From: Kordiimonadaceae bacterium
GTDB taxonomy: Bacteria; Pseudomonadota; Alphaproteobacteria; Sphingomonadales; Kordiimonadaceae
Reading direction: 5' to 3'
Length of the DNA: 58,665 bases
NCBI GenBank assembly: GCA_030148905.1
Contig: JASBSO010000208.1
Coordinates: forward strand, 1-58,665
Part shown: positions 10,118 through 58,665 of the stretch, piece by piece
Layout: each line of letters starts with the position of its first letter
Numbering within the stretch: position 1 is the stretch's first letter
Notes under the pieces: model-generated
Seen by the model: the letters and a program-made list of their open reading frames with translations, nothing else
The model's database searches: none
What the model was told of the DNA's origin: nothing
Program-made: the position numbers and the translations under genes

Positions 10118-11533
10118 TCAAGCGCTCAGGGCGCGGGCAAGTTCATCAAATCGTTCTTGCGGCCAGTCGCGGGCCGTGCGTACGACGTCGCCGATCAGCA
10201 GCAAGGCCGGGCTGATCACGCTGTGCTCGGTGATCAACTGCGGCAGCGTGGCCAGTGTGCCGTAAAAGCGGCGCTCTTCGGGGCGGGTGCCATTTTCAAT
10301 GACCGCGACCGGCGTGTGGGCGGCAACACCGTGGTGGATCAGCCCCGCGCTGATTTTCGGCGCGGTTTTAATCCCCATATACACAGCAAGCGTTTGACCA
10401 TCGCCCGACAGGCGTGCCCAGTCGCTGAAATCGCCGTGCTGGCAGTGCCCAGTCACCAATGTCAGCGACGACGACCATTGGCGGTCGGTCAGCGGAATTT
10501 GGGCGGCGGCGGCAATACCGGTGAGCGCGGTGATGCCGGGCACAACTTCGGTATCGATCCCGGCACCTCTGAGCGCGGCAAGCTCTTCGCCGGCGCGCGC
10601 AAACATCAACGGGTCGCCCGATTTCAGGCGCACAACACGCAGGCCCTCGCGGGCGTGCTCGATCATCAGGGCGTGAATACGCGGCTGGCCCTTGCCGTGC
10701 TGGCCTTCTTTTTTGCCGACATACACAAGCTTGGCGTCGCGGCGGGCGAGGCTCAGGACGTCTTTGCTCACCAGCCGGTCATACAGTACCACATCGGCCT
10801 GCTGCAGGGCGCGGTGGGCGCGCATGGTCAAGAGGTCCGGGTCGCCCGGGCCCGCACCCACAAGCTGAACCAGCCCCTTGCCGCCGGTGTCGGCGGTGCG
10901 GGCAAGATGTTCGATCTCGCTTTGTGCCGTGTCGGCATCGAGCCCGGCGAACCGGTCCGCCTGATCAAAAAGACTGTCCCAAAACTGTCGGCGCGCGGTG
11001 GCGTCAGGCAGGGCCGTTTTAACGGCGGCTTTTGCTTTTCCGGCGGCGCTCGCCAGCGTGCCGAGCGCGGGTGGAACCGCCTGCTCCAAAAGGGCGCGCA
11101 AGCGGCGCACAAACACCGGCGCCACTCCGCCCGAGGAAAAGGCAACCTGCAATGGTCCGCGGGTAAACTGCGCGGGCGTGATAAAGGTACCCAGCGCAGG
11201 GCGGTCAACGATGTTAACCGGAATGCCGCGTGCCGCTGCAGCACCTGCAATGGCGCGCTCGGCCGCATCGTCGTCCAGCGAGGCATAAACGAGGCTGATC
11301 TCGTCCAAGTCGCGGGCGGTAAAATCGCGGTCATGTACAACGGCGACCGAAGGGGCCAGGCGCTCAGACGTGAGGCCTGCGTCTTCAAGTGCTTCCGCCA
11401 TGCCGGAGCCGACAAGCCGTAGGCGCATGCCATAAGGCGCAACCAGTGCAAGCTTGGCCATGCTGGCCTCGCCCGTGCCAACAATCAGCACATGCGCGCG
11501 CTCGGCATTCAGAAAAATCGGCAAAGCTGCCAT
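10118..11533 (-). CDS. cysG: siroheme synthase (uroporphyrinogen-III methyltransferase / precorrin-2 dehydrogenase / ferrochelatase)
   Basis: 471 aa. N-terminal Rossmann fold (VLIVGTGEA) and a C-terminal SUMT domain (VGAGPGDPDLLT). Confidence 0.9.
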   Translation of the reverse strand: MAALPIFLNAERAHVLIVGTGEASMAKLALVAPYGMRLRLVGSGMAEALEDAGLTSERLAPSVAVVHDRDFTARDLDEISLVYASLDDDAAERAIAGAAAARGIPVNIVDRPALGTFITPAQFTRGPLQVAFSSGGVAPVFVRRLRALLEQAVPPALGTLASAAGKAKAAVKTALPDATARRQFWDSLFDQADRFAGLDADTAQSEIEHLARTADTGGKGLVQLVGAGPGDPDLLTMRAHRALQQADVVLYDRLVSKDVLSLARRDAKLVYVGKKEGQHGKGQPRIHALMIEHAREGLRVVRLKSGDPLMFARAGEELAALRGAGIDTEVVPGITALTGIAAAAQIPLTDRQWSSSLTLVTGHCQHGDFSDWARLSGDGQTLAVYMGIKTAPKISAGLIHHGVAAHTPVAVIENGTRPEERRFYGTLATLPQLITEHSVISPALLLIGDVVRTARDWPQERFDELARALSA

Positions 11534-14095: not shown

Positions 14096-14860
14096 TTAAA
14101 AATTGTCTTTACGTTGCCGTGTTTCGGCAAAAACCGCAACCGGGTCTGCGCCGACCATATCGAGTGATGCCTGCAAGCCGGGGCTGTCTGGGCGCAGGAA
14201 GGGATTGGTGCGTTTTTCAAGCGCGATGGTCGTGGGGATGGTGGGCTTGCCCTCGGCGCGCAGGGCCTTGACCTCGTCCATCCGGGTAATCAGGTCGGGA
14301 TTGTCCGGCTCGACGCTCAGGGCAAATTTGCCGTTCGTGGTGGTGTATTCGTGCGCACAGTACACAGACGTGTCACCGTCAAGCACCATCAGTTTTTGCA
14401 AGGAGGCCCACATCTGGGCGGGTGTACCCTCAAACAGCCGCCCGCAACCCATGGCAAATAGGGTATCGCCGCAAAACAGTGCCCGGTCATCCGCGAAATG
14501 ATAGGCGATATGGCCCGAGGTATGCCCCGGCACGTCGAAGACCGCCGCTTTGACCGCGCCCAACATCACGACGTCACCCTCGCTGACGGGGCGGTCAATC
14601 CCTGGAATGCGTTCGGCCTCTGCTTTGGGACCGGTAATGTGGAGACCGTAATGGTCTTTCAGCGCCAGATTGGCGCCCGTATGGTCCCAGTGGTGGTGGG
14701 TGTTGAAAATGTGGGTGAGCCGCCAGCCGCGCGCCTCGCAGGCGTCAATCACCGGTGCGTCCACGGCGGGGTCAACAATGGCGGTTTCACCCGACGTCGG
14801 CTCGTGAATAAGATAGAGATAATTGTCTTGCAAAACGGGCAGTTGAACAATCTCGATCAT
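14096..14860 (-). CDS. gloB: hydroxyacylglutathione hydrolase (glyoxalase II)
   Basis: 254 aa. THHHWDH metallo-beta-lactamase motif and the typical GloB N-terminus (VLQDNYLYL). Confidence 0.9.
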   Translation of the reverse strand: MIEIVQLPVLQDNYLYLIHEPTSGETAIVDPAVDAPVIDACEARGWRLTHIFNTHHHWDHTGANLALKDHYGLHITGPKAEAERIPGIDRPVSEGDVVMLGAVKAAVFDVPGHTSGHIAYHFADDRALFCGDTLFAMGCGRLFEGTPAQMWASLQKLMVLDGDTSVYCAHEYTTTNGKFALSVEPDNPDLITRMDEVKALRAEGKPTIPTTIALEKRTNPFLRPDSPGLQASLDMVGADPVAVFAETRQRKDNF

Positions 14861-14863
14861 GGC

Positions 14864-15286
14864 TTACTCGCTGTGGCTCAGTTTGACAGATCCGTCCTCG
14901 GGCACCGATGCGCCAACGGGTAGCGTACGGTAAAAACAGCGCGCATGCCCAACGTGGCAGCAGCCGTCGCCCGCCTGTTTGACGATCAGCAACAGGCTGT
15001 CCTGGTCGCAGTCTATGCGTGCCTCGACAACGGTTTGTACTTGGCCCGAGGTTGCACCCTTGTGCCACAGTTCCTGCCTGGAGCGGCTGTAATAATGTGC
15101 CTCGCCGGTCTCCAGCGTGGCACTGAGCGCGTCCAAATTCATCCAGGCCTGCATCAGCACGTGGCCCGTGTCGGCGCACTGGGTGGTCACAGGAAACAGA
15201 CCGTCCGCATTGGTGCGGACGGCGAGCGTGTCTCCGGTTTCAACAAAGGCGCGGTCATCCCGCGCGGCGGGACGGATGCGGTTCAT
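14864..15286 (-). CDS. hisI: phosphoribosyl-AMP cyclohydrolase
   Basis: 140 aa. YYSRSRQELWHKG.TSG...IDCDQD pattern. Confidence 0.9.
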   Translation of the reverse strand: MNRIRPAARDDRAFVETGDTLAVRTNADGLFPVTTQCADTGHVLMQAWMNLDALSATLETGEAHYYSRSRQELWHKGATSGQVQTVVEARIDCDQDSLLLIVKQAGDGCCHVGHARCFYRTLPVGASVPEDGSVKLSHSE

Positions 15287-15291
15287 GGGCG

Positions 15292-15936
15292 TCAGCCTTG
15301 CGGTCGGTCAGCGCGGACCATGTCCCAAAACTGGCGCTCGCGCTCGGCGTTTTTAAATTCGCCGCGGAATTGCCGCGTCCAGGTGTGGACATTTTGGTGG
15401 CGCACGCCGCGGCAGCCCATGCAGTCATGCACCGCGTCAACAACAACGGCCACACCGCGCGCACCCAGATGCGCCTCGATCGCGTCGGCGATTTGTGCGG
15501 TCATGGTTTCCTGCGTTTGCAGGCGGCGCGAAAAGGCGTCAACAAGGCGTGCCAGCTTCGACAGGCCAACAACCCGGCCATTTGGCAGATAGGCGACATG
15601 CGCCACCCCGCGAATAGCCACCATGTGATGCTCGCAGTGGCTGTCAACCCGAATGCCGGTCAGCAGCACCATGTCGTCATAGCCTTCAACCTCTTCAAAG
15701 GTTTTGGCCAAAATCTCGGCCGGATCAGCGCCGTAGCCCGAGAAAAATTCTTCATAGGCTTTGACAACGCGCGCCGGTGTATCCAGAAGGCCTTCGCGCG
15801 CCGGGTCATCGCCTGCCCATTCGATCAATGTGCGGACGGCGGCTTCGGCCTCCTCGCGGGTGGGGCGGTGCGCCGTCGTATCGACATACGCCTTCAGTTC
15901 AGGGCCTTGTTCGACCCTTTCAAGTACGGCAGTCAT
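15292..15936 (-). CDS. folE: GTP cyclohydrolase I
   Basis: 214 aa. SHCEHHM and HDCM motifs. Confidence 0.9.
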
Positions 15937-25572: not shown

Positions 25573-26745
25573 ATGCATGGCCATTTGGATGTTATGACTC
25601 AAACCTTGAGCCCGCTTCTGTCCGGCTATGACGCTGATGGCGCTGTAAGGTACCATTATGGTGCCTTCCCTCCCGACCATATAAATTTTGCACACTTGAT
25701 GGCCCTGGCTATGGAAGCAAGTGCGGCTTTGGCCAGGTACGATCAAATGGTGCAAAGCTTGGCCAATCCCAGCCTTCTTATTGCACCGCTGTCGCGAAGA
25801 GAAGCCGTTGCCTCTTCTAGGATGGAAGGCACTGTTAGCACTTTAGATGCATTATTGGAGCTTGAGTCTGAACAAGGGGATGGCGAGGAGCACCCCTCAG
25901 AATTTAGGCGTAGCGAAACATTTGAAGTGCTTTTGTATACGCGGGCCATGCAAAAGGCAGAAATTGCATTACAAGCGGGCTATCCAATCAGCGAAACGCT
26001 TATTCGCGAGATGCACCAAACACTCTTGTCATTTGGGAGAGGTGCTTCGAAAAGGCCCGGCGAGTATAAAACCGAACAAAATTATCTAGCCGATACAAGG
26101 CAAAGAAAAATCCAATTTATTCCGATCTCGCCAAGTGATTTACGTCCTGCTATGCGAAATATGATAGCGTTCATGGGCGACACAAAAATTCCTTCGCTTT
26201 TTAGGGTAGCAATCGGTCATGTAGAGTTTGAAGCGCTGCACCCTTTTGATGATGGTAATGGCCGCGTGGGACGGATGCTTATCACGCTATATCTTAGCCA
26301 GTTGGGTCTAATCGGTGCACCGTATTTTTACATCTCGGGATATTTTGACGACCATAAAGACGAGTATATTGAGGCAATGCGGGCGGTTTCGCGCGACAAG
26401 GATTGGACAAGGTGGTGCCAATTCTTTTTTGAAGCGGTTAAAGGGCAATCCGAGTCAAGCTTATCAGTCGCCAATGCAATATCCTCACACTATGAAATTC
26501 TTAAGCCACAGGTTTCGGAATGTTTGGGCTCAAAATGGAGTGTTAAGGTTCTGGATCATATATTTGCATATCCGATTTTTACAGCTCCACAGTTATCAAA
26601 GGGTGCGGGGTTGACGCAGTCATCTGCAAACCGTTTCGTTAGGCATCTTCATGACGCCGGGATTATTGATATCCTTAGACTTGGCGCAGGACGTAGGCCG
26701 ACCCGTTACCGGCTGACCTCACTACTTGATATCGTCAGAAACTAG
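25573..26745 (+). CDS. Fic family protein (AMPylase-type Fic domain with N-terminal inhibitory helix and C-terminal wHTH-like tail)
   Basis: HPFDDGNGRVGR matches HPFx(D/E)GNGRxxR. The upstream SSRMEG matches the (S/T)xxxE(G/N) inhibitory motif. Alternative start at 25594. Confidence 0.9.
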   Translation: MHGHLDVMTQTLSPLLSGYDADGAVRYHYGAFPPDHINFAHLMALAMEASAALARYDQMVQSLANPSLLIAPLSRREAVASSRMEGTVSTLDALLELESEQGDGEEHPSEFRRSETFEVLLYTRAMQKAEIALQAGYPISETLIREMHQTLLSFGRGASKRPGEYKTEQNYLADTRQRKIQFIPISPSDLRPAMRNMIAFMGDTKIPSLFRVAIGHVEFEALHPFDDGNGRVGRMLITLYLSQLGLIGAPYFYISGYFDDHKDEYIEAMRAVSRDKDWTRWCQFFFEAVKGQSESSLSVANAISSHYEILKPQVSECLGSKWSVKVLDHIFAYPIFTAPQLSKGAGLTQSSANRFVRHLHDAGIIDILRLGAGRRPTRYRLTSLLDIVRN

Positions 26746-48444: not shown

Positions 48445-49593
48445 TTTTTCGGGGAAAAAGTCGGTTAACCCCAGTAGCCCGTCGTCGACGACAAATTTTT
48501 CGCCGTCTGGGCGTTTTTTCAGCGCCGACAGAAACAGGCGCGTCACTTCATCCCAGCTATAGAGCTGGGCGAAATTGGCGCAGTCACGGCGGTTGAGCGT
48601 CAGCGCCGTGCGGATTGCGGTGTCTAGGTCATCGTCAAGCGCGGCGATTTGGGTGTTCCAATTGGGGAACGGGCCACGGCCATCTTGCCCCAAAACATCA
48701 ACTGGCCCCTGAACAGGATAGGCGGCCACCGGCGTGCCGCTGGCCAGTGCCTCGATCATCACAAGCCCAAAGGTATCGGTTTTGGACGGGAAGACAAATA
48801 CATCGGCGGCAGCATAAGCGCGCGCCAGATCTTCGCCGTACAGCGCCCCCAAAAACCGCGCCTTAGGGTACCGGGCGGCCAAATCCTCGCGCGCGGGGCC
48901 GTCGCCAACCACCACCTTGGTGCCGGGCGTGTCGGCATTCAAAAAGGCCTCCAGGTTTTTTTCAACCGCGACCCGGCCGACGCACAATTGGATCGGTCCT
49001 TCAAAATCCAGACTGGCATTGGGGCGCGGGTAAAACAGTTCGGTGTCGACGCCGCGTGTCCAAGGGACGATTCGGTTGAAGCCCTTATCTTCCAATAGGT
49101 CGCGTACGCTTCGAGTGGCGACCAAAACACCGCTGGAGGCGGCGTGAAATCGCTTGAAAATCGGGTAAAACCAGTCGGCGGGTAGGTGGCTGCGCGCCGA
49201 CATATATTCCGGAAAGGCCGTGTGATAGGCGGTGGTAAAGGGGTGCCCGATCCGAATACAGAAATTGCGCGCCGCCCAGCCCAGTGGCCCTTCGGTCGCG
49301 ATGTGAATCGCGTCGGGCTGAAAGCGCTTTAAAATCCGTGCCAGCCGAAACGGCACATTCAGCGCCAGCTGTATTTCCGGATAGGTCGGCATGGGCATGG
49401 TTTTGAACATTTTGGGCGACAAAACCAAAACCCTGAGCCCGCGCTTGCGCAGTTCGCGCTTCAAGGTATCAAGCGTACGCACAACGCCGTTAACCTGCGG
49501 GTGCCAAGCATCTGTGACAATGCAGATCCGCTTTAATTCGGTGTCGTAATCCGGCAGGGCCGGTACAGGCTTCCTGTACATAGTGAACCGCAT
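48397..49593 (-). CDS. glycosyltransferase family 4 (GT-B, retaining)
   Basis: 398 aa. IVTDAWHPQVNGVV N-terminus and a C-terminal EALASGTPV (EX7E region). The ATG shares one base with the upstream TAA. Confidence 0.85.
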   Translation of the reverse strand: MRFTMYRKPVPALPDYDTELKRICIVTDAWHPQVNGVVRTLDTLKRELRKRGLRVLVLSPKMFKTMPMPTYPEIQLALNVPFRLARILKRFQPDAIHIATEGPLGWAARNFCIRIGHPFTTAYHTAFPEYMSARSHLPADWFYPIFKRFHAASSGVLVATRSVRDLLEDKGFNRIVPWTRGVDTELFYPRPNASLDFEGPIQLCVGRVAVEKNLEAFLNADTPGTKVVVGDGPAREDLAARYPKARFLGALYGEDLARAYAAADVFVFPSKTDTFGLVMIEALASGTPVAAYPVQGPVDVLGQDGRGPFPNWNTQIAALDDDLDTAIRTALTLNRRDCANFAQLYSWDEVTRLFLSALKKRPDGEKFVVDDGLLGLTDFFPEKLRTQVQSQLEHGEHA

Positions 49594-50528
49594 TATTCGG
49601 CCGCCGCAGGGGTTGCGTCAACAGGTTGCGCTTTCTTTTTCCGGGCCTTTTTCGCCGAAGACTTGGCCCATGCAGCCTGCTCGCGGGCGGCGACTTCATC
49701 GGCATAATATATGATTTCCCACGCGCCGTCATCATGTTCAACCAGAGCTGTGCAGCTTTCCACCCAGTCGCCGTCATTGAAATATTCAATATCTTCGATC
49801 ATGCGGCGTTCGGCATGGTGGATGTGGCCGCAAATGACGCCCTGCACGCCGCGGCGGCGGGCCTCCTGCGCGACCGCCGTTTCAAACCGACCGATATATT
49901 CAACCGCATTTTTCACCCGCTGTTTCAGATAGGCCGACAGCGACCAATAGCTGAAGCCAAGCTTGCGGCGGAACCAGTTAAAGACCGTATTGATTTTGAG
50001 AAGGGTGACATACGCCCAGTCGCCAATCATCGCGAGCCACTTGGCGTTCAGGACCACGCCGTCAAATATGTCGCCGTGCAGCACCCAGTATTTTTTGCCG
50101 TTGGCGGCCTGGTAAATGGTGTCCATCACCATCGAGACCCCAGCCATATTATTGCCGACGAAATCGCGAAAGCCTTCGTCGTGATTGCCGGGGATGTAGA
50201 CAACTTTGGTGCCGCTTTTGGCGATTTTCAAAACCTTGCGAATCACGTCATTATGCGTGGTGTCCCAATACCAGGATTTTTTCAGCCGCCATCCATCAAC
50301 GATATCGCCGACCAAAAACAGTGTGTCGCATTTGATTTCGCGCAGAAATTGCAGCAGCAGGTCTGCCCGCGCGGCGCGGGTACCCAAATGCGTGTCGGAA
50401 ATAAATACGGCGCGGTATCGGCGCTTTTTACGGTCGGGCTCGTCGCCCGTTGGGACGCCATCACCCTTGCCGGGTATGAAAAGCGACGGATCGGTCAGCG
50501 GATTGGGAGACATTGCACCTTCGACCAT
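49593..50528 (-). CDS. LpxH-like metallophosphoesterase (UDP-2,3-diacylglucosamine diphosphatase family)
   Basis: 311 aa. Calcineurin-like motifs ISDTHLG, VGDIVDGW and GNHD. Confidence 0.8.
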   Translation of the reverse strand: MVEGAMSPNPLTDPSLFIPGKGDGVPTGDEPDRKKRRYRAVFISDTHLGTRAARADLLLQFLREIKCDTLFLVGDIVDGWRLKKSWYWDTTHNDVIRKVLKIAKSGTKVVYIPGNHDEGFRDFVGNNMAGVSMVMDTIYQAANGKKYWVLHGDIFDGVVLNAKWLAMIGDWAYVTLLKINTVFNWFRRKLGFSYWSLSAYLKQRVKNAVEYIGRFETAVAQEARRRGVQGVICGHIHHAERRMIEDIEYFNDGDWVESCTALVEHDDGAWEIIYYADEVAAREQAAWAKSSAKKARKKKAQPVDATPAAAE

Positions 50529-50779
50529 ATCTTACCTGCCTTTACACAAAAGGACCGCAAAGCAGATGCTTTCTGGCCCTTGATCGGGTTGTCGTCCCAC
50601 GCGGTTTGGGCCCTGCCGCACCCTGCCAGCCTATAGCATAGACCAGCTGAGGCGTCTGCGGCGAATCTCATTTGCCCTTGGATGCGTTTTGACGCTGCGC
50701 CGTGACAGCGCGGTGAATCTGGCGTGACAGATTTATGAAGGGTGATCATCACCGCGCGCCATCGGCATAATAAAATTTC

Positions 50780-50936
50780 AGTCTCACGCAAGATAACCCA
50801 AATGTGAGGGAGTGTTAGTGGCAAGCTGGGCCAGATCGCGGCACAGTCTGGGTGTGACGAAAGTTACAGCGTGCTTCTTTTGAAGTGCGTTTCCTCCCTG
50901 AGCCTGGGCCACGTTCTTGAACGTGGCTCTTTTTTT
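50780..50936 (+). ncRNA. candidate small RNA ending at an orphan terminator
   Basis: A plus-strand intrinsic terminator (50908-50936) has no plus-strand CDS upstream. Hairpins at 50783-50808 and 50831-50851. Single-stranded-looking UUUCCUCCCUGA at 50890-50901. The 5' end is not defined. Confidence 0.3.
50908..50936 (+). terminator. rho-independent terminator (orphan, plus strand)
   Basis: gccacgtt cttg aacgtggc 8-bp stem followed by tcttttttt. Confidence 0.8.
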
Positions 50937-50964
50937 GGGCTTCGGGCAAAGGCGCATGGGTGGT

Positions 50965-51897
50965 TTATTCCGCCGCAATGGTTTCGGCTGAATTTGCCCC
51001 GCCAAGGCCAAGGCGCGGCAGTTTTTCAACAAACCCAAGCATCATGTCGTGCAGTTGGTCTTGCAGTCGGGCAAATCCGGCATGTTTGGCAAAACTGCGC
51101 TCGTGCATATATAGGCTGCGGCAAATTTCCAGCTGCACCACATGTACATGGGCATTCGGACGCCCATAAAATTCGGTAATAAAGCCACCGGCATAGGGCA
51201 CATTGCGCCGCACGCGCAGGCGCTGGCGGATCAAAAGCGATTCGAGCGCCGATGGCACCCGCCGGTCTGCAGCGCGCCCCCAATTGTCGCCGAGCACGAT
51301 ATCGGCTGCGCGCTGGGTGTCGTCCAGGCCGCCGGTCATCGCCGCAGACGGCATGCTGTGGCCGTCGATCAAAACGGCATAGCCAAAGATGTCTTTCAGG
51401 CGTGCGATCATCGTTTGAACGGCGCCGTGATACGGATGATAGACGCGGTCAAGCCGGTGGTTGATCTCATCCGCCGGCAGCGGGCCGGAATAGAGGGTCA
51501 TGCCGCGCGCCACCAGTTTGGGGATAACCCCAAGGCCCGCGGAAACGCGCCGACTTTGCGCAACAGGCAGGCCCGGTGGCAGGCCGTCATACATCGTGGG
51601 GTCCAGCTCGTCCGGGCGGCGGTTCAGGTCGACATAGGCGCGGGCATGGCTGGCGATCAGCACCGGCAGGCCAAGCGCGGCGGACGGGGTCAGCAGGTCA
51701 TCCACCCAGCAGTCTTCTGACAGGCGCAAGGCGCGCGGTTCTAACGTGGTTTGGGCCAGAAATTCGGGCGGGTAAAACCGTCCGCTATGCGGCATCATCA
51801 GCAAGATAGGTGCGGTTACCTGCTCGGGTTCAAACAGGAAAAAGGGCGGGGGGCAGTCCCGCGCTGTATACCGCTCTGGCTGGTGGATATTGCGCAT
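50965..51897 (-). CDS. N-formylglutamate amidohydrolase family protein
   Basis: 310 aa. FGase-family pattern (PHSGR..P, DLNR, IDGHSM). Confidence 0.8.
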   Translation of the reverse strand: MRNIHQPERYTARDCPPPFFLFEPEQVTAPILLMMPHSGRFYPPEFLAQTTLEPRALRLSEDCWVDDLLTPSAALGLPVLIASHARAYVDLNRRPDELDPTMYDGLPPGLPVAQSRRVSAGLGVIPKLVARGMTLYSGPLPADEINHRLDRVYHPYHGAVQTMIARLKDIFGYAVLIDGHSMPSAAMTGGLDDTQRAADIVLGDNWGRAADRRVPSALESLLIRQRLRVRRNVPYAGGFITEFYGRPNAHVHVVQLEICRSLYMHERSFAKHAGFARLQDQLHDMMLGFVEKLPRLGLGGANSAETIAAE

Positions 51898-52060: not shown

Positions 52061-52135
52061 GGACGCGTAGCTCAGTGGTAGAGCACTGTGTTGACATCGC
52101 AGGGGTCGGCAGTTCAATCCTGCCCGCGTCCACCA
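52061..52135 (+). tRNA. tRNA-Val (anticodon GAC), CCA encoded
   Basis: Cloverleaf folded by hand. Acceptor stem ggacgcg/cgcgtcc. D arm gctcagtggtagagc. Anticodon stem ctgtg/cgcag with loop ttGACat. T arm ggcag ttcaatc ctgcc. Discriminator A followed by CCA. Confidence 0.93.
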
Positions 52136-52142
52136 TTTTCTC

Positions 52143-52373
52143 TTAAGCCGTTGATTTCAAAATTCGCTGTGTTGAGGCGGGAAATCGCACCAGCGTATCG
52201 CCAGTGCGCATCGGACGCGGGCTGAGGGTGCCGCCGCAATTGGGGCATATACCGCCGGCGGCGTCGATACAGGGCACGCAAAAGGTACATTCAAAGCTGC
52301 AGATCAGCGCGCCGGGTTCATCCGCCGGCAGGTCTGTGTCGCACAGTTCGCAGTTGGGGCGCATCTCAAGCAT
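52143..52373 (-). CDS. DUF1272 family zinc-ribbon-like protein
   Basis: 76 aa. MLEMRPNCELCD...ICSFECTFC..C....CPNCGG cysteine pattern. Confidence 0.75.
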   Translation of the reverse strand: MLEMRPNCELCDTDLPADEPGALICSFECTFCVPCIDAAGGICPNCGGTLSPRPMRTGDTLVRFPASTQRILKSTA

Positions 52374-52842
52374 TGCCGGTGTTCCTTGCGATGCCGATTT
52401 TCAGGGCGTCTTCATAGGCTTGCAGTCCGTCGCCCGAGAGATGCTGCCGGGCGTGGGTGTTCAGCTTGTCAAGCGCAGCGCTTTGGTTGAGCGCCATATA
52501 AATTTGCGCCAGATGGACCAAAAGCGGCGCACTCGCAGGGGCAAGCGCGATGCCCTTGGCGCAGGTGTCGATGGCGTCCCGCGCCCGATTTTCCTGCACC
52601 ATCAGCTGGCTGGCCAAGAGATAGGCCTCGGCAGAATTCAGTGTTTCCAGCGCCGGTTCCAGCGCCGCCAGTGCAGGGCCGTAGCGTTTGTCGTTCAGGT
52701 GCAGCTGGCACAGCATGGTGCGCGGTTCCGGATTGTCGGGATAAGCGGCGATGGCGGCTTCTAAAATATTGCGCGCAGCGTCGGTTTCTCCTCCCGCTGC
52801 GGCGGCTTGGGCTTCAGCTTTCCATGTCTGTGTGCTGGTCAT
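52366..52842 (-). CDS. tetratricopeptide repeat protein
   Basis: Start taken at MTSTQTW (52842). Ala/Leu-rich TPR-like repeats. Overlaps the DUF1272 gene by 8 nt. Confidence 0.65.
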   Translation of the reverse strand: MTSTQTWKAEAQAAAAGGETDAARNILEAAIAAYPDNPEPRTMLCQLHLNDKRYGPALAALEPALETLNSAEAYLLASQLMVQENRARDAIDTCAKGIALAPASAPLLVHLAQIYMALNQSAALDKLNTHARQHLSGDGLQAYEDALKIGIARNTGNA

Positions 52843-53054
52843 GTGCCTGATATCTCCCCCGAGGTTGTCAACATATAGACGATTCTGGTCTATCGCGCAC
52901 GAAATATTGCGATTTTCCCCGAAGGCATATGCGCCTGCCATTTCCATAAAGAGCAGCAATCGGTTTTCGCTGTAATTGTGGCAGTGGTCTCATTGTGACC
53001 AAAATTCGCATTCGAAGAGAATTGCAGCAACTTTAAGGAGGATTGCGGCGCGGC

Positions 53055-53090
53055 GAAGTTCATGGGCGAGCAGAAGTTCATGGGCGAGCA
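53055..53090. repeat. perfect 18-bp tandem duplication
   Basis: gaagttcatgggcgagca at 53055-53072 is repeated exactly at 53073-53090. Confidence 0.95.
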
Positions 53091-53320: not shown

Positions 53321-54028
53321 TTATGCAGGCATGCGCCGATGATGTACCCATAAAACACCCGCAAAAATGTTATCAATGCCTACGGTTTCTGTCGCGCCGT
53401 TTTCCGTGCCCGGCGTTGGCGCGCTCTGGTCTGGGTCGCCCAGATCAAAACGGTAGCTCTGATAGCGCGGATTAGGCTCTGCCGGGACCGCAACCAGCCA
53501 CAGGGCACCGTCCGCCGTGCGGTGCAAGCGCCGCAGCACAACGGTCTCGTCGCGCCGCGCCATCAAAAGTGCCCCCGGAACCAGCGGGAAATGATGCAGC
53601 CGTGGGTCTGCGCCTATCACCAAACTGCCTTCGGGGACCTCGGTCGCCATGGACTCGTCGCCCATCAGATAACAGTACAAGCCCTCATTTGTGGCCGCGT
53701 CGGGCGGTAAGGGAACGCTGGAAAAGGAAAGTGTATCGGCAGGGGCAATGTCGCCGGTGCCTGTTATGGCGCCCAAAACCGGCAGCCGGTCGTCACGGTT
53801 GTCGCCGTCGTCGGGGATAGACTGGCCCGCCTCAAGGCTTTTCAAAAGCCGTGTCGGGGACATGGCAAGCATGTTGGCGAGCGGTAAAATCTCATCCGAT
53901 TGCACCTCGCGCATGCCTTTAATGACATCGGTGACGCGCGGCGGCGAAATGCTGAGCCGCTGTGCTGCATCTTTCAACTTCAAACCGCGCGCCTTCAGCG
54001 CCGTTTTGAGCCAAGCTTGTTCTCTCAT
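53321..54028 (-). CDS. phage CI/LexA-like repressor (XRE HTH + S24 peptidase-like domain)
   Basis: Start at MREQAW (54028). HTH LKLKDAAQRLSISPPRVTDVIKG. S24-type GDESMATEVPEGSLVIGAD. The ORF track extends to 54133. Confidence 0.8.
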   Translation of the reverse strand: MREQAWLKTALKARGLKLKDAAQRLSISPPRVTDVIKGMREVQSDEILPLANMLAMSPTRLLKSLEAGQSIPDDGDNRDDRLPVLGAITGTGDIAPADTLSFSSVPLPPDAATNEGLYCYLMGDESMATEVPEGSLVIGADPRLHHFPLVPGALLMARRDETVVLRRLHRTADGALWLVAVPAEPNPRYQSYRFDLGDPDQSAPTPGTENGATETVGIDNIFAGVLWVHHRRMPA

Positions 54029-54146
54029 GTCTTCATTATTCCGGAAACCAACAGGCTTGTCATTTACGAAAAGAGAAAATTTAAGTCTTGTCAATAAACA
54101 TTCGATAAACGTAATATATTTTCTTGCAATCAAGGAGGCGATATCG
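54029..54146. promoter_or_regulatory. divergent promoter/operator region of the phage-like switch
   Basis: Plus strand: -35 TTGTCA (54088-54093), 18-nt spacer, -10 TAATAT (54112-54117). ATAAAC direct repeats at 54094-54099 and 54105-54110 lie inside the spacer. The complement of the -35 region reads TTGACA for the minus strand. Confidence 0.45.
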
Positions 54147-54710
54147 ATGAATGACGACAGTATAACGATGGCTTTGGATCAGGCTTGTAAGGATTTTGCG
54201 CGGTTGCTACAGCGCCGTACCCCAAGTGCAGACGATAGCCTCAATGCACAGATGACGCATTTTCTGGAGACCCGGCTGGTGGATGCCGCCTGGACCCTCC
54301 GCAGGCTGCCGGACCGGGAGAAAGGGTTTTTATATCAGCGCCAAACTCTATGGCCAGATATGCGCCAGACTGACGGTCAACCGATTGATTTATCAATAGA
54401 TACCGTCTTCGCGCGAAAGCAGGTCCGGCCCAGCCCGCGGCAGATTGATGCGATGATCCCCACCATGGACTTGCTGCGCTTACTGCCCGACATAAAAGAC
54501 CGCAATGTTGTGTTTTGGGGCGCATGGCACCAGGACGGCGAAGTCCAAGCGCGCATCCCATGGGCCAAGGTGCGGCGCAGCCTGGGCAGCGACCTGTCGC
54601 GTTGGACAATGAAACGCCGATATCAGAGCGCGTTGGACTGGCTGGCCCGCCTTGTTGTGCAGCGGAATCAAAAAAATTACAAAAAAAGTAAAAAAATGAT
54701 TGCACCCTAA
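54147..54710 (+). CDS. phage-associated protein of unknown function, putative late-gene regulator
   Basis: 187 aa. ATG at 54147 with a strong SD AAGGAGG (54132-54138). Divergent from the repressor. Arg/Trp-rich C-terminal segment. I recall similar proteins in alphaproteobacterial prophages but cannot verify this. Confidence 0.6.
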   Translation: MNDDSITMALDQACKDFARLLQRRTPSADDSLNAQMTHFLETRLVDAAWTLRRLPDREKGFLYQRQTLWPDMRQTDGQPIDLSIDTVFARKQVRPSPRQIDAMIPTMDLLRLLPDIKDRNVVFWGAWHQDGEVQARIPWAKVRRSLGSDLSRWTMKRRYQSALDWLARLVVQRNQKNYKKSKKMIAP

Positions 54711-54752
54711 AGACCAATTTGGTACAAGTTTCTTGTCATCGTGAACATCTGT

Positions 54753-54781
54753 ACCCGCCGCATTGCACGGCGGGTTTTTTT
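54753..54781 (+). terminator. strong rho-independent terminator upstream of terS
   Basis: cccgccg cattgca cggcggg: a 7-bp all-GC stem followed by 7 consecutive T. Confidence 0.85.
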
Positions 54782-54827
54782 GACCGGGCATGCAGCAGGT
54801 CGCCTTTTTGGGTGGGAGATCGGCAGT

Positions 54828-55355
54828 ATGGCTGACGACACATCGCGCGTTGACGGCGCGGATATTTGGTCTTCTGATCGCCCACACACCGATAAGCGTA
54901 TTGCCCGGTTTCTGGCCGCACTTGACGAAGGCCTGTCGGTTGCCAGTGCGGCCAAGACTGCAGGTATCAACCGGTCTTGGCTGTATCGGTTGCGTGCCCG
55001 CGACGCGACGTTTGATGCGGCCTGGCATGATGCGTGCGAGGCTGGAACCGACCGGCTGGAAGACGAAGCCCGCCGCCGCGCGGTTGAGGGCGTGGAAAAG
55101 CCAGTGTTTCGTGGCGGCGAGATTGTTGGGCATGTGCGCGATTATTCCGACGCCATGCTGATCTTTTTGCTCAAGGCCCGCCGCCCGGAAATCTTTGCTC
55201 CAGCCGCAAAGCAGAGCGCGACCACCGCACAAAGTGACGACGGTGCCAACACCACAAACGCCACAAACGCACAGGAAACCCTTTACCGTAAATTTGCTCA
55301 GATCCTTACCGAAGCGTCTGATCCGGAAGTTTCTGGGGACACTGAACAAGGCTGA
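54828..55355 (+). CDS. phage terminase small subunit (HTH type)
   Basis: Start at MADDTS (ATG at 54828, preceded by GGGAGA). HTH LSVASAAKTAGINRSWLYRLR and the conserved SDAMLIFLLKARRPE tail. Positioned before terL. Confidence 0.7.
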   Translation: MADDTSRVDGADIWSSDRPHTDKRIARFLAALDEGLSVASAAKTAGINRSWLYRLRARDATFDAAWHDACEAGTDRLEDEARRRAVEGVEKPVFRGGEIVGHVRDYSDAMLIFLLKARRPEIFAPAAKQSATTAQSDDGANTTNATNAQETLYRKFAQILTEASDPEVSGDTEQG

Positions 55356-56568
55356 GTCCGAAGCCCTTCTTTATGATTGGGCGTTCTGGGCACGGCCCAC
55401 ACAGCATCCGCCGCCCGGCAATTGGACGCACTGGCTTATTTTGGCCGGGCGCGGCTTTGGTAAAACCCGCACCGGTGCAGAGTGGGTCCGGGCGCGGGTA
55501 GAGGCAGGCCAAGCCCGGCACATCGCCCTGATCGCCCCCACACTCGGTGATGCGCGCGCGGTGATGGTGGAAGGTGAATCGGGCCTGCTGGCCGTGTGCC
55601 CGCCCGACCGCCGTCCTAAATTTGAGCCGTCCAAACATCTTCTGACCTGGCCGTGCGGCGCCAAAGCGCGACTGTTCAGCGCCGATCAACCGGAGCGTCT
55701 GCGTGGCCCACAGCACGACACCGCCTGGGCTGATGAACTGTGCGCCTGGCGGTTGCCCGATGCCGGATGGGATATGTTGATGTTTGGTCTCCGGCTTGGC
55801 GGCAAGCCGCAATGCTGCATCACCACGACGCCCAAGCCAATTGCGCTCTTGAAACGGCTGGTGATCGACCCCGCGGTCGCGGTGACCACGGGCAGCACCT
55901 ATGAAAATATTGAAAATCTTGCCCCCAGCTTTGCGCGCGATGTCATCGCGAAATACGAAAATACCCGGCTTGGCCGACAAGAGCTTGCGGCCGAATTGCT
56001 GTGGGATGTGCCGGGCGCCTTGTGGTCGCGCGACCAGATCGACGGCCTCTATGCCCCGCCGACGGCCAGGCTGGAGCGGATCGTTGTGGCGATTGACCCA
56101 CCAGCAACGGCGGGCTCGAACGCTGATGCCTGCGGTATCATTGTTGCCGCGCGTTCAGGCCGTATGGCCTATGTGCTGGCCGACCGGTCCTGCCAGGGGC
56201 TCAGCCCGCTGGGGTGGGCGGCCCGCGCGGTTGAGGCCTATCACGATTTTCAGGCAGACCGCATCATCGCCGAGGGCAACCAGGGCGGCGATATGGTGCT
56301 CGCGCTTTTGCACCAGATCGACCCAAATGTCGCCGTGCGCCGGGTCCATGCACGGCGGGGCAAAGTCACACGGGCTGAACCGGTGGCTGCGCTTTATGAA
56401 CAGGGCCGCGTGTTTCACGCCGCACCGATGCCGGCGCTTGAAGACCAAATGGTCACCTTTACCGGTGCACCCAGCGCCGACAGTCCAGACCGGCTGGATG
56501 CGCTCGTATGGGCGCTGGCGGACCTGATGCTGACCCCCAAAGGGCAACCCCGACTGAGGAGCTTATAA
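55195..56568 (+). CDS. phage/GTA-type terminase large subunit
   Basis: LLYDWAFWARP...WLILAGRGFGKTRTGAEWV (Walker A-like) resembles RcGTA g2-type TerL, as recalled. The true start may be the in-frame TTG at 55294, because the ATG at 55195 overlaps terS by 161 nt. Confidence 0.85.
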   Translation: MLQPQSRARPPHKVTTVPTPQTPQTHRKPFTVNLLRSLPKRLIRKFLGTLNKAESEALLYDWAFWARPTQHPPPGNWTHWLILAGRGFGKTRTGAEWVRARVEAGQARHIALIAPTLGDARAVMVEGESGLLAVCPPDRRPKFEPSKHLLTWPCGAKARLFSADQPERLRGPQHDTAWADELCAWRLPDAGWDMLMFGLRLGGKPQCCITTTPKPIALLKRLVIDPAVAVTTGSTYENIENLAPSFARDVIAKYENTRLGRQELAAELLWDVPGALWSRDQIDGLYAPPTARLERIVVAIDPPATAGSNADACGIIVAARSGRMAYVLADRSCQGLSPLGWAARAVEAYHDFQADRIIAEGNQGGDMVLALLHQIDPNVAVRRVHARRGKVTRAEPVAALYEQGRVFHAAPMPALEDQMVTFTGAPSADSPDRLDALVWALADLMLTPKGQPRLRSL

Positions 56569-57761
56569 TGGGATTTTGGACACGCCTTTGGGGCGGCACT
56601 GTGCACCACGGCAACAGTTATAAATCGGCAGCAAAGCCCAGTGGAGGTGCGCCGCTTTTCCGGGCGGTGACGCCCGGGTCTGCGGCCAGTACACCGCACC
56701 GCTTTGCCGCGCTCGCCGACGAGGGCTATGCGCGCAATATCATTGTTTTCCGTTCAGTAAACCTGGTGGCACGGGCGCTCTCCTCCCTTCCGCTGTGCCT
56801 CCGGTCAGGCGAGCAGGTTCTGGAGACGCACCCTGCGCTCGACCTGCTCGCCGCACCCAATCCACGCACCGATGGCAGCCATCTCATGTCTGAACTGGTC
56901 GGTGCCTATATGCTGGCAGGCAACGCCTTTCTGTTGAAAGTGGGGCCCGAAGACGGACCGCCAAAAGAGTTGTGGTCGCTCCGGCCCGATACGGTGTCGG
57001 TGCTGCCAGGCGTTGACGGTCTGGTGGCTGGATACGAGCAGCGCGTCGGCGGGCAAACGCGGCGCTTTGCCCCCGAGCGTATTCTGCACTGGAAAACCTA
57101 CAACCCGCTGTCGGAATGGGTGGGCCTGGCCCCGCTGGCGGCGGCGGCGACGGCGGTGGACGCGCACAATGCCGGGTCGCGCTGGAATTTGGCGCTGATA
57201 CAGAATGGCGGTGCGCCGTCGGGGGTGCTGTATCAGGAAGACGGCGATACGCCTCTGTCGCCCGAACAATTTGCCGACCTGAAGGCACAGGTGGATGCGG
57301 GGCACACCGGGCCCAATCACGCGGGGCGGCCGCTGCTGTTAGAAGGTGGGCTGAAATGGCAGTCCATGGGCTTGTCGCCCAAGGATATGGACTGGATCCA
57401 GGCGCAGCATATGACCGCCCGCGAAATTGCACTGGCCTTTGGTGTGCCGCCACAAATGCTTGGTATTCCCGACAGCCAGACCTATTCCAATTATGCCGAA
57501 GCGCGGCTGAGCTTGTGGGAAGACACAGTGCTGCCGTTGGTGCGTGATCTGGTCTCGGCGCTGAACAGTTGGCTGATGCCGCATTATGGGCCGCGCCTGA
57601 AACTTGATGTGCAGCTTGATGATATTCCCGCGCTTGAGCCCAAGCGCCAGCGCCGGTTCGAGCGCATAAGCTCTGCCGCTTTCCTAAGCGACGCTGAAAA
57701 GCGACAGCATCTGGGTTTGCAGGCCCGCCCCCAGCACAAGGACGCACCAACCCATGACTGA
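56568..57761 (+). CDS. HK97 family phage portal protein
   Basis: Start at MGFWTRLWG (the ATG shares one base with the terL TAA; SD GAGGAG upstream). 397 aa. Positioned between terL and the protease. Confidence 0.85.
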   Translation: MGFWTRLWGGTVHHGNSYKSAAKPSGGAPLFRAVTPGSAASTPHRFAALADEGYARNIIVFRSVNLVARALSSLPLCLRSGEQVLETHPALDLLAAPNPRTDGSHLMSELVGAYMLAGNAFLLKVGPEDGPPKELWSLRPDTVSVLPGVDGLVAGYEQRVGGQTRRFAPERILHWKTYNPLSEWVGLAPLAAAATAVDAHNAGSRWNLALIQNGGAPSGVLYQEDGDTPLSPEQFADLKAQVDAGHTGPNHAGRPLLLEGGLKWQSMGLSPKDMDWIQAQHMTAREIALAFGVPPQMLGIPDSQTYSNYAEARLSLWEDTVLPLVRDLVSALNSWLMPHYGPRLKLDVQLDDIPALEPKRQRRFERISSAAFLSDAEKRQHLGLQARPQHKDAPTHD

Positions 57762-58665
57762 AACCGCTCAACTTCCCACCATTTTGGACCTTCCGCTTGA
57801 TGTGAAGGCCGATGCCGACGGTCGCTTTGAGGGTTATGCCAGCATCTTCGACGTGGTCGACCGCGACGGCGACCGGGTGACCCGCGGGGCCTTTGCCGAC
57901 AGCCTTCAGGCGCGCATGCCTGCCCTGTTGTGGCAGCACAGCCCCAAAGACCCGATTGGGCGGCTCGATATTGTGCGCGAGGACCAGAAGGGGCTCTATG
58001 TCAAAGGCCGCCTGGCGATGGAAGGGCGCGGTGCTGAGGCCTATGCCCTTCTGAAAATGGGGGCGCTTGACGGTCTGTCGATCGGCTTTGTCACCAAGGA
58101 AGCCAGGCGCGACCCGGCCTCGGGTGTGCGCACGATTATGAAGGCAGACCTCGCCGAAATTTCGCTGGTCACCTTTCCGGCCAACACGCTTGCCCGGATT
58201 GAAGCGGTGAAGGCCGAGACGGTGACTGCGCCCAAATCTCCACCAGGTGATGTGCGGTCGTTCGAGCGCTTTTTGCGCGATGCGGGCGGCTTCTCGCGCG
58301 GCCAGGCCAAGGCGATTGTCGCCAAAGGCTGGAGCATGGGGCAGGTTGATGTGGCTGATATTGTCGCCCGCCTGCATGCGGGCCAACAGCGCTTTTTAGA
58401 AAGGAAGCAAGAGTCATTTAAAGACGGGCCAAAACAGATGAGCCCCGGCGATGTCAAAACCTTTCACTTTAAGGCAAAATTCGGCCGAAAATATAAAGTG
58501 ATCGTTTCCGGGCCGCCCCGCTATCGGCGACCGAATGTGAGGATCAGAGCAAAATTTTACCACCCAACATCAAATATGCTGCTGCGAAGCTATACGCCGC
58601 TTCTCAACGAAGAGAATTTTAAACTTGCTCCCCTGCGCAAAGAGGATAAGCGCAGGCTTTATGCG
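57754..58665 (+). CDS. HK97 family prohead protease, open to the right window edge with an unusual low-GC C-terminal extension
   Basis: Manual translation: MTETAQLPTILDLPLDVKADADGRFEGYASIFDVVDRDGDRVTRGAF...ISLVTFPAN...FERFLRDAGGFSRGQAKAIV. No stop in 304 codons up to the end of the window. Confidence 0.8.
   Translation, partial: MTETAQLPTILDLPLDVKADADGRFEGYASIFDVVDRDGDRVTRGAFADSLQARMPALLWQHSPKDPIGRLDIVREDQKGLYVKGRLAMEGRGAEAYALLKMGALDGLSIGFVTKEARRDPASGVRTIMKADLAEISLVTFPANTLARIEAVKAETVTAPKSPPGDVRSFERFLRDAGGFSRGQAKAIVAKGWSMGQVDVADIVARLHAGQQRFLERKQESFKDGPKQMSPGDVKTFHFKAKFGRKYKVIVSGPPRYRRPNVRIRAKFYHPTSNMLLRSYTPLLNEENFKLAPLRKEDKRRLYA

Follow-up and report, generated by a model that had tools for sequence, protein, structure and literature searches.

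The DNA considered here is the 58,665-bp contig JASBSO010000208.1 of a Kordiimonadaceae bacterium (assembly GCA_030148905.1), which was analyzed as a whole and is referred to as the window. At its right end, phage-type packaging and head genes directly adjoin the genes of a repressor and of a protein of the DUF6362 family, and this element, from position 53321 to the contig end, is the subject of the analysis. The map was based on the listing of open reading frames (ORFs), a tRNA search and scans of the window with Pfam, PHROG and NCBIfam profiles. The repressor gene lies on the minus strand (53321..54028, within an ORF of 53321-54133), and a 118-bp divergent control region delimited by a promoter scan (54029..54146) separates it from the plus-strand gene of the 187-aa DUF6362 protein (54147..54710). 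A late control cassette with an operator-like site, a promoter and an intrinsic terminator follows (54677..54782, plus strand). Then come, also on the plus strand, terS (54828..55355; 175 aa), the TerL gene (55294..56568, alternative starts at 55234 and 55243), which overlaps the end of terS, the gene of an HK97-type portal (56568..57761; 397 aa) and that of an S78 prohead protease (57754..58395), whose ORF is open to the contig end; the right end of the window falls within or just past this gene. Every gene was found where a preliminary description of this DNA had placed it (repressor on the minus strand, 187-aa protein, terminator, terS, terL, portal and protease). The same description had pointed to a packaging-head module without integrase and replication genes directly abutting a regulatory switch; this is seen in the window, where no integrase, excision or replication genes were found on the left side, and it recurs in Kordiimonadales genomes.

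The packaging and head genes were assigned by profile matches. TerS matched phrog_4044 (E=3.6e-34), and its N-terminal helix-turn-helix (HTH) region was matched by HTH_23 (E=1.4e-4), HTH_29 (4.9e-4) and Sf6_terminase (6.2e-4), all under the gathering scores and spanning residues 50-119 of the 204-aa ORF. TerL matched Terminase_6N (E=1.6e-25) and Terminase_6C (E=8e-22) and contains the motif LLYDWAFWARP...AGRGFGKTRTGAEWV that had been quoted from it. Its identity was 57-72% to the TerL of sister clusters and 50-54% to that of bona fide phages; these values are too close, and TerL was rejected as a discriminator between gene transfer agents (GTAs) and phages. The placement of TerL against phages and the clade of the Rhodobacter GTA (RcGTA), as proposed in the preliminary description and made here by identity, therefore failed to separate the two. 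The portal protein matched Phage_portal (E=1.8e-78) and TIGR01537; its nearest named relatives belong to Kordiimonas, Gimibacter, Yunchengibacter and Temperatibacter (52-62% identity), and its best match (72%) is encoded on the 106-kb metagenome contig L001. The protease matched Peptidase_S78 (E=1.8e-30) and TIGR01543, and in an alignment with four relatives the homology ended near residue 207. From the protease gene to the final 270 nt of the contig (58396..58665), the GC content falls from 62% to 47%; relatives have variable inserted ORFs at this place, which in L001, L003 and L004 separate the protease gene from that of the capsid.

Since the contig stops there, the content 3' of the protease was inferred from relatives. 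L001, and likewise L008 and L047, show the order TPR gene, repressor, DUF6362, terS, TerL, portal and protease with 49-72% protein identity, and the compact order is also present in Kordiimonas sediminis, Gimibacter soli, Pseudokordiimonas caeni, Yunchengibacter and the metagenome-assembled genomes L013 and L043. In L001 and L047, the protease gene is followed by genes for the capsid (Phage_capsid), a Gp77-like protein, a connector (Phage_connect_1), a head completion protein (Phage_HCP) and Tail_completion_gp17, next by those for the major tail protein (Phage_tail_2), a chaperone of the GTA-gp10 type (Phage_TAC_11), a 197-aa tape-measure-like protein and three small proteins, and at the far end by DUF6950, a 1172-aa Phage-tail_3 protein, a 123-aa ORF, Peptidase_M15_3 and then the host gene typA/bipA. 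The cluster spans about 18-21 kb, and up to typA neither integrase nor replication genes nor a tRNA were seen in it. Thus, of the rightward content asked for by the preliminary description, the capsid, adaptor, tail, short tape-measure-like and Phage-tail_3 genes do follow in the closest relative, without an integrase or an attR-type tRNA before typA. The Peptidase_M15_3 protein of L047 (16669-17310) is a candidate endolysin; its gene and the 123-aa ORF lie just before typA. Because of this far-end peptidase, lysis genes cannot be assumed to be absent from the element of the window, which, in contrast to RcGTA, may carry lysis functions in cis.

The surroundings of the element were compared in order to place it in the chromosome. 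A host flank of three minus-strand genes (GT4, an LpxH-like Metallophos and FGase; 48517..51897) lies outside the element and marks a conserved chromosomal position: it is common to the window, where it is inverted, G. soli and P. caeni (44-73% identity). Upstream host flanks are likewise common to 9-13 Kordiimonas loci. Since host flanks are shared across genera, the element is old and vertically inherited, not newly integrated. A locus scan with one genome per GTDB species yielded 35 loci, and almost every one of them carried the label Kordiimonadales or Kordiimonas. The repressor and DUF6362 occurred together in 31 of these, with a DUF1376 gene between them in 27 and without it in four. In the Kordiimonas loci with DUF1376, terS lies 0.8-8 kb beyond, often with a PAS_5 gene between, or was not within the up to 10 kb fetched.

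A strict RcGTA-family agent would package random host DNA, as in Rhodobacter and Caulobacter, and would differ only in that its regulators have moved beside the cluster. We consider this reading unlikely: although the RcGTA-like order and the Pfam families of the g6-g10 equivalents in relatives, their short tape-measure-like protein (197-268 aa) and g15-like Phage-tail_3 protein, the cluster length of 18-21 kb, the vertical inheritance and the lack of visible integrase and replication genes all agree with it, TerS has kept an N-terminal HTH, whereas RcGTA gp1 has no N-terminal DNA-binding domain, a lack proposed as a hallmark of the GTA type (PMC6854486). Moreover, the g12-g13 equivalents matched no RcGTA Pfam families, no window protein matched an RcGTA-specific NCBIfam model, TerL resembles that of true phages just as closely, and no DUF6456 relative of GafA or GafZ was found in the window. 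The RcGTA_tape model scored 15.7 bits against the G. soli homologue, with a cut-off of 220. Because of the TerS HTH, the NCBIfam results and the likeness of TerL and the head genes to those of phages, the label GTA-like domesticated head-tail element was preferred to that of a strict RcGTA.

The gap between DUF6362 and terS holds the late control cassette. In the five loci first compared, it consists of an A-rich stretch with a TTAC(G)-N5/7-(C)GTAA site, an invariant CTTGCACCC box, an extended -10 and a conserved block followed by a GC-rich hairpin and T-run. The box contains the -35 hexamer TTGCAC, the window version being ATTGCACCC, and the extended -10 (TGnTACAnn) lies 14 nt past it. In the window, the operator-like TTAC-N7-GTAA (54677-54691) precedes the late box (C/A)TTGCACCC (54699-54707, with the -35 at 54700-54705), which overlaps the DUF6362 stop codon. 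The extended -10 TGGTACAAG (54720-54728), a -10-like CATCGT (54737-54742) that is tentatively a pause element, and the intrinsic terminator follow (stem 54753-54775, seven T to 54782), all on the plus strand. In the window, CATCGTGAAC forms the block between the -10 and the hairpin; one class of loci has CATAGTGACCGAATG at this place, and a second class has CA(A/C)ATTGAG. From these positions, an RNA ending at the window terminator would be about 45 nt long.

With nhmmer, a profile of the cassette found 44 copies in 30 of 45 sequences (the window and 44 loci), always on the gene strand and often as tandem pairs; the window holds no copy beyond that at 54668-54783. In most loci with a downstream terS match, a copy ends about 70-370 nt ahead of it, even where DUF6362 lies kilobases away. 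The terminator stems diverge in sequence (GCCCGCC/GGCGGGC, CGCCGCC/GGCGGCG, AGCTGGCC/GGCCAGCT and AGCTCGCTC/GAGCGGGCT). Since the MAFFT alignment of the hairpins was not structure-aware, each copy was folded separately in place of pair counting, and 29 of 32 distinct copies folded beside the T-run, the median z being -3.5. An Rfam search of the cassette returned no family. The CTTGCACCC box also precedes terS in the phage-like contigs L009 and L010, with a terminator after the box in L009 only. A layout of the Q type was thus found, in which a late promoter and a promoter-proximal intrinsic terminator adjoin a regulator gene and the late operon comes after. Two further observations concern the surroundings of such cassettes. 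In L009, a long perfect inverted repeat (CACAATATTTTGT...ACAAAATATTGTG; 10630-10680) lies just upstream of the box and is a possible operator for the small HTH protein encoded 3' of DUF6362 there; in Kordiimonas lacus (L031, 12201-12327), the cassette stands ahead of a PAS_5 gene and not of terS.

The 187-aa protein matched Pfam DUF6362 (E=1.4e-6) and phrog_6836 (E=4e-13). The core of the family is strongly conserved over 22 homologues, and in Pfam DUF6362 was the sole match for the window protein, as it was for 17 of the 22 members of the family. Among 1.84 billion proteins, 148 representatives were related at E<=0.001, mostly of 130-220 aa; distant relatives looked up by cluster were hypothetical proteins only, and tblastn against 50,697 phage records gave no match. 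The AlphaFold2 model is all-alpha, with a predicted local distance difference test score (pLDDT) of 83.5. Neither a sequence search against the PDB, which gave no meaningful match, nor Foldseek against the PDB (no match at E<=0.1; TM-score <=0.32 among the 50 matches listed) revealed a relative of solved structure. In BFVD, two unnamed proteins were found at E~3e-3; the weaker neighbours (E=0.16-2) comprised sigma factors of the extracytoplasmic function (ECF), sigma-70 and late types as well as DUF1492 proteins. An HTH like that of sigma region 4 in the C-terminal half is only a suggestion, and a Pfam scan of each family member matched no sigma model, that of sigma region 4 included.

An assignment of DUF6362 to the GafA/GafZ domain was rejected. 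Homologues of GafA carry the annotation DUF6456 (Sherlock and Fogg, PMC9638019), and gp38, the GafA homologue of roseophage RDJL-phi1, matched DUF6456. When 22 DUF6362 proteins were compared with ten gp38-type proteins by hhalign, the probability was 0.4%, indicating no relationship, and a gp38/GafA-family profile found no match and hence no DUF6456 relative in the window. No GafY-like DnaA domain IV was matched in the window either, in a weak test with an approximate E. coli DnaA segment as the query. In two phage-like contigs whose morphogenetic backgrounds are unrelated, DUF6362 lies upstream of terS, where the early genes meet the late ones. It thus holds the position of a late-gene regulator, and by this position it is a candidate for such a regulator, either an activator or an antiterminator.

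The choice between these two functions bears on how the cassette would work. DUF6362 might be a sigma-like or class II activator of the CTTGCACCC promoter without antitermination, with the hairpin serving as the DUF6362 terminator or a passive attenuator. The box of 9 nt around the -35 is invariant, which suggests a dedicated recognition protein, the C-terminal LPD..DR..FW......IPWAKVRRSLG..LSRWTLKRRY resembles a sigma region 4 HTH by eye, ECF and late sigma factors are among the BFVD neighbours, and the window terminator lies just 43 nt past the DUF6362 stop codon. We nevertheless regard this function as rather improbable. In loci that have 1.3-6 kb between DUF6362 and terS, the terminator accompanies the late promoter beside terS and not DUF6362; many loci have two tandem promoter-terminator units, and L009 has a terminator 3' of the box despite a separate small gene after DUF6362. 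In addition, Pfam sigma models remained without a match.

The repressor, with an N-terminal HTH and a degenerate S24-like C-terminal domain, was matched by HTH_3 (E=1.8e-5), by Peptidase_S24 (E=0.003, under the gathering score) and by phrog_4 'transcriptional repressor' (E=2e-9); a sequence search against the PDB gave no meaningful match. Since its homologues measure 229-241 aa, the ATG at 54028, giving 235 aa, is most likely the start. In an alignment with LexA, lambda CI and the CI of L009, all 13 chromosomal homologues had Arg where the catalytic Lys is expected, and the column of the Ser nucleophile was not conserved, the motif being shifted or lost. The CI of the phage-like contig L009 retains both residues of the dyad (GDSM, KKL). 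Because the Ser-Lys dyad has been lost, RecA-stimulated self-cleavage of the repressor is unlikely.

Two promoters were predicted in the divergent region. The leftward one, for the repressor, has its -35 at 54063-54058 and its -10 at 54040-54035, and since the latter ends 6 nt before the ATG, the repressor mRNA is probably leaderless. The rightward one, for DUF6362, has its -35 at 54088-54093 and its -10 at 54112-54117. Operator-like half-palindromes lie at 54064-54078 and 54100-54114. This design of two promoters, each with a TTAC(G)-N5/7-(C)GTAA palindrome in its spacer, is common to 30 orthologous loci. In many Kordiimonas species, TTACG-N5-CGTAA palindromes are perfect in the divergent region, shortly before the late -35 box and, as a third site, past the repressor. 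The window has three copies, at 54064, 54100 and 54677, each with two mismatches and at orthologous places, and the changes in the leftmost one are common to the window and L001 (TTCCGGAA). Judged by position and symmetry only, a repressor dimer would bind the palindromes and thereby control its own gene, DUF6362 and possibly, directly, the late promoter. The third perfect palindrome of many Kordiimonas loci lies 0.2-1.7 kb past the 3' end of the repressor gene (for example, at L014 7096, L015 6193, L019 7092, L031 7082 and L040 6993) and suggests one more regulated promoter.

The degenerate operators of the window would fit a cryptic, decaying prophage remnant without function, whose regulator pair and cassette would be persisting leftovers. 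The G. soli copy without its capsid-to-tail-completion genes, the variable insertions of relatives between protease and capsid and between DUF6362 and terS, and the flagging of the L001 region as viral by IMG/VR point the same way. In G. soli (L005, CP116805), the segment was lost at 14700-15600, leaving an 81-aa capsid fragment, with the repressor, DUF6362 and two late cassettes intact. A functionless remnant is, however, quite improbable in view of the intact ORFs (45-72% identity) at the same chromosomal position across an order-level clade. Promoter, operator and terminator elements conserved in 30 of 45 sequences are also hard to explain without long-term purifying selection; the terminator stems, too, vary in sequence and keep their folding.

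The undeleted form of the arrangement is represented by two phage-like IMG/VR contigs that carry DUF6362, namely L010/L011 (53 kb) and L009 (34 kb). In L010/L011, the early region runs from an HTH repressor on the minus strand through cII-like, MT-A70, DnaB, DUF1376, DUF5131 and LexA_DNA_bind genes to DUF6362 and a small HTH gene. About 1.4 kb beyond, past two minus-strand ORFs, terS is followed by TerL, portal, MuF, protease and capsid genes. L009 has a CI with a strong S24 match on the minus strand, then a cro-like HTH gene, a primase-helicase gene, DUF6362, a small HTH gene, terS, a different TerL and a P22-type portal. In line with the layout that the preliminary description had given for a normal temperate phage, cro/cII, replication and methylase genes separate the repressor from DUF6362 in these contigs. 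By gene order, loss of the early genes (3-7 kb) that lie between the two would leave the arrangement of the window, and the DUF1376 gene of Kordiimonas pumila and most Kordiimonas is by the same reasoning a presumed relic of the early region. The DUF1376 family adjoins DnaB in L010. The head genes of L010/L011 are 57-62% identical to those of L001.

Taken together, we lean towards reading the window as the left end of a vertically inherited, HK97-type and RcGTA-like head-tail cluster, a domesticated prophage or GTA-like element from which the early region of a temperate phage (cro/cII, replication, methylase and integrase genes) is gone. The switch would then work as follows. First, a non-cleavable repressor of the CI/RogA type would bind the palindromes at its own leaderless promoter and at the DUF6362 promoter, as well as the third site above the late promoter, and keep the system off. 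Second, a RecA-independent signal would relieve repression, and DUF6362 would be made. Third, DUF6362 would act at the adjacent late promoter, with its CTTGCACCC box and weak extended -10, and would let RNA polymerase pass the intrinsic terminator about 20-45 nt into the transcript. The genes of terS, TerL, portal and protease and those downstream would then be transcribed. In its logic the switch would resemble lambda Q, GafZ and BrrG, but it would employ an unrelated protein family.

Several points weigh against this reading. Just four structural genes are visible in the window, a literature search found no link of Kordiimonas or Kordiimonadales with GTAs, and neither the HTH of TerS, contrary to the proposed GTA-type hallmark, nor the lack of any match of window proteins to RcGTA-specific NCBIfam models is what such an element would suggest. 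The head genes of L010/L011, a prophage that looks replication-competent, are as similar to those of L001 as are the head genes of sister chromosomal clusters. The partial deletion in G. soli indicates decay in some lineages. As to regulation, the operator copies of the window are degenerate, and matches with two mismatches are not enriched window-wide. Profile comparisons related DUF6362 neither to Q nor to GafZ nor to sigma region 4, its Foldseek likeness to sigma factors is weak (E=0.16-2), and the window terminator could merely end the DUF6362 transcript. A more far-reaching proposal builds on the domesticated head-tail cluster and is offered tentatively, as possible though doubtful: DUF6362 would be an unrecognised family of phage late antiterminators without a fold relative of solved structure, which, together with the non-cleavable CI-like repressor and the 110-bp cassette, would form the minimal cis switch of an undescribed Kordiimonadales GTA lineage in mid-domestication, its early genes lost and a phage-type TerS kept.

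Between the host flank and the repressor, a tRNA-Val gene (52061-52135, plus strand) is followed by the minus-strand genes of DUF1272 (52143-52373) and a TPR protein (52366-52959), both assigned by profile scan, and by about 360 bp of non-coding DNA up to the 3' end of the repressor gene. This agrees with the earlier statement that only DUF1272 and TPR genes and non-coding DNA lie there. The tRNA-Val gene was considered as a possible attL, which is unsupported, no integrase having been seen. Within the non-coding stretch, an exact 18-bp tandem duplication, GAAGTTCATGGGCGAGCA, is present in two copies (53055-53090). Farther left, a Fic/DOC family gene (25573-26745, plus strand) lies in an island of 48-50% GC in a contig of otherwise about 60% GC and was probably acquired horizontally.

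To our knowledge, the regulation of GTAs is known in detail for Rhodobacter, Caulobacter and Bartonella only. Since the regulators are scattered in the chromosomes of Rhodobacter and Caulobacter, the origin of GTA control circuits is difficult to follow. In the present element, the putative circuit is complete within about 1.5 kb beside the structural genes, with repressor, operators, regulator, late promoter and terminator. The loci also offer a natural series from temperate phage to host-controlled particle producer, reaching from the undeleted layout of L009 and L010/L011 to rearranged chromosomal layouts in which DUF1376 is kept, PAS_5 is inserted or the regulators are split from terS. DUF6362, a domain of unknown function, gains a function that can be tested, and if it does prove to be an antiterminator, late genes would be known to be antiterminated in one more, unrelated way besides those of Q, GafZ and BrrG.

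Known GTA regulators had been said in the preliminary description to be encoded apart from their clusters, and the literature consulted bears this out for rogA, gafYZ and gafA: gafYZ (CCNA_01111-2) lies apart from the Caulobacter GTA cluster (CCNA_02880-61), and gafA (rcc01865) apart from g1 (rcc01682) (PMC9632790, PMC6363796, PMC6854486). Of the cis-linked repressor and activator proposed there for a GTA-like element, the repressor/regulator pair stands, is encoded in cis and is conserved, whereas the supposed activator is a DUF6362 protein unrelated to the known GTA activators. Likewise, the cis-linkage and the regulator family are new, as had been supposed for the arrangement as a whole, and its logic is known in kind from RogA/GafYZ and BrrG. 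What is already known, from Caulobacter and Bartonella, is the use of a small regulator alongside a non-cleavable CI-like repressor, with a terminator before or within the late operon. New are the compact cis-linked form, a DUF6362 family unrelated to GafA/GafZ and Q, a conserved 110-bp cassette that is also present in true phages, and the visible series of intermediates.

A close parallel in regulatory logic is the Caulobacter GTA (CcGTA). There, RogA, a LexA/CI-like protein without key catalytic residues, represses gafYZ (PMC9632790), and GafZ is an antiterminator for which a binding element between -35 and -10 has been proposed (PMC11150451). Going by what has been published on RogA, both systems place a repressor with an HTH and an S24-like domain without catalytic residues above the gene of a small regulator, and in both this regulator serves, putatively in the case of DUF6362, a GTA-type head-tail operon with an early terminator (terGTA in Caulobacter) and a regulator-binding element proposed inside the late promoter. 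In Caulobacter, however, the three components occupy three distant loci, whereas they adjoin each other in the Kordiimonadales element. DUF6362 also shares no homology with the DUF6456 proteins GafZ and GafA, no GafY gene was found in the window (a weak test), and the terminator precedes terS, at about 20-45 nt of the transcript, instead of following the first gene.

Compared with RcGTA, the order terS-TerL-portal-protease-capsid-adaptors-tail is shared, the part beyond the protease being taken from relatives, as are the short tape-measure-like and large Phage-tail_3 proteins of those relatives, the vertical inheritance and the lack of visible integrase and replication genes. Unlike RcGTA, the element encodes a 175-aa TerS with an HTH, where gp1 has no DNA-binding domain, and its regulators are encoded in cis and unrelated to GafA; relatives also have extra ORFs among protease, capsid and adaptors.

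The CI/Cro immunity regions of L009 and L010/L011 likewise have a divergent repressor, palindromic operators in both promoters, a probably leaderless repressor mRNA, as is that of lambda cI from PRM, and DUF6362 with the CTTGCACCC promoter ahead of terS (with the terminator in L009). The window differs from them in that cro, cII, replication, methylase and integrase genes are absent and the Ser-Lys dyad of the repressor is lost (Lys to Arg).

In lambda, the late promoter PR', on which Q acts, is followed by the terminator tR' within tens of nucleotides, after the regulator gene. BrrG of the Bartonella GTA (BaGTA) belongs to a circuit like that of phage 21 Q, which includes a terminator as well as a -10-like element (bioRxiv 10.1101/2024.11.20.624540). 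As in the circuits of lambda Q, phage 21 Q and BrrG, the regulator gene of the Kordiimonadales element lies right upstream of the late promoter, the initial transcribed region is short, with a -10-like hexamer (tentative here) and a promoter-proximal terminator, and packaging and head genes lie downstream. The differences are that DUF6362 has no sequence or fold similarity to the Q proteins and that here the late promoter leads to the terminase genes with no lysis cassette in between.

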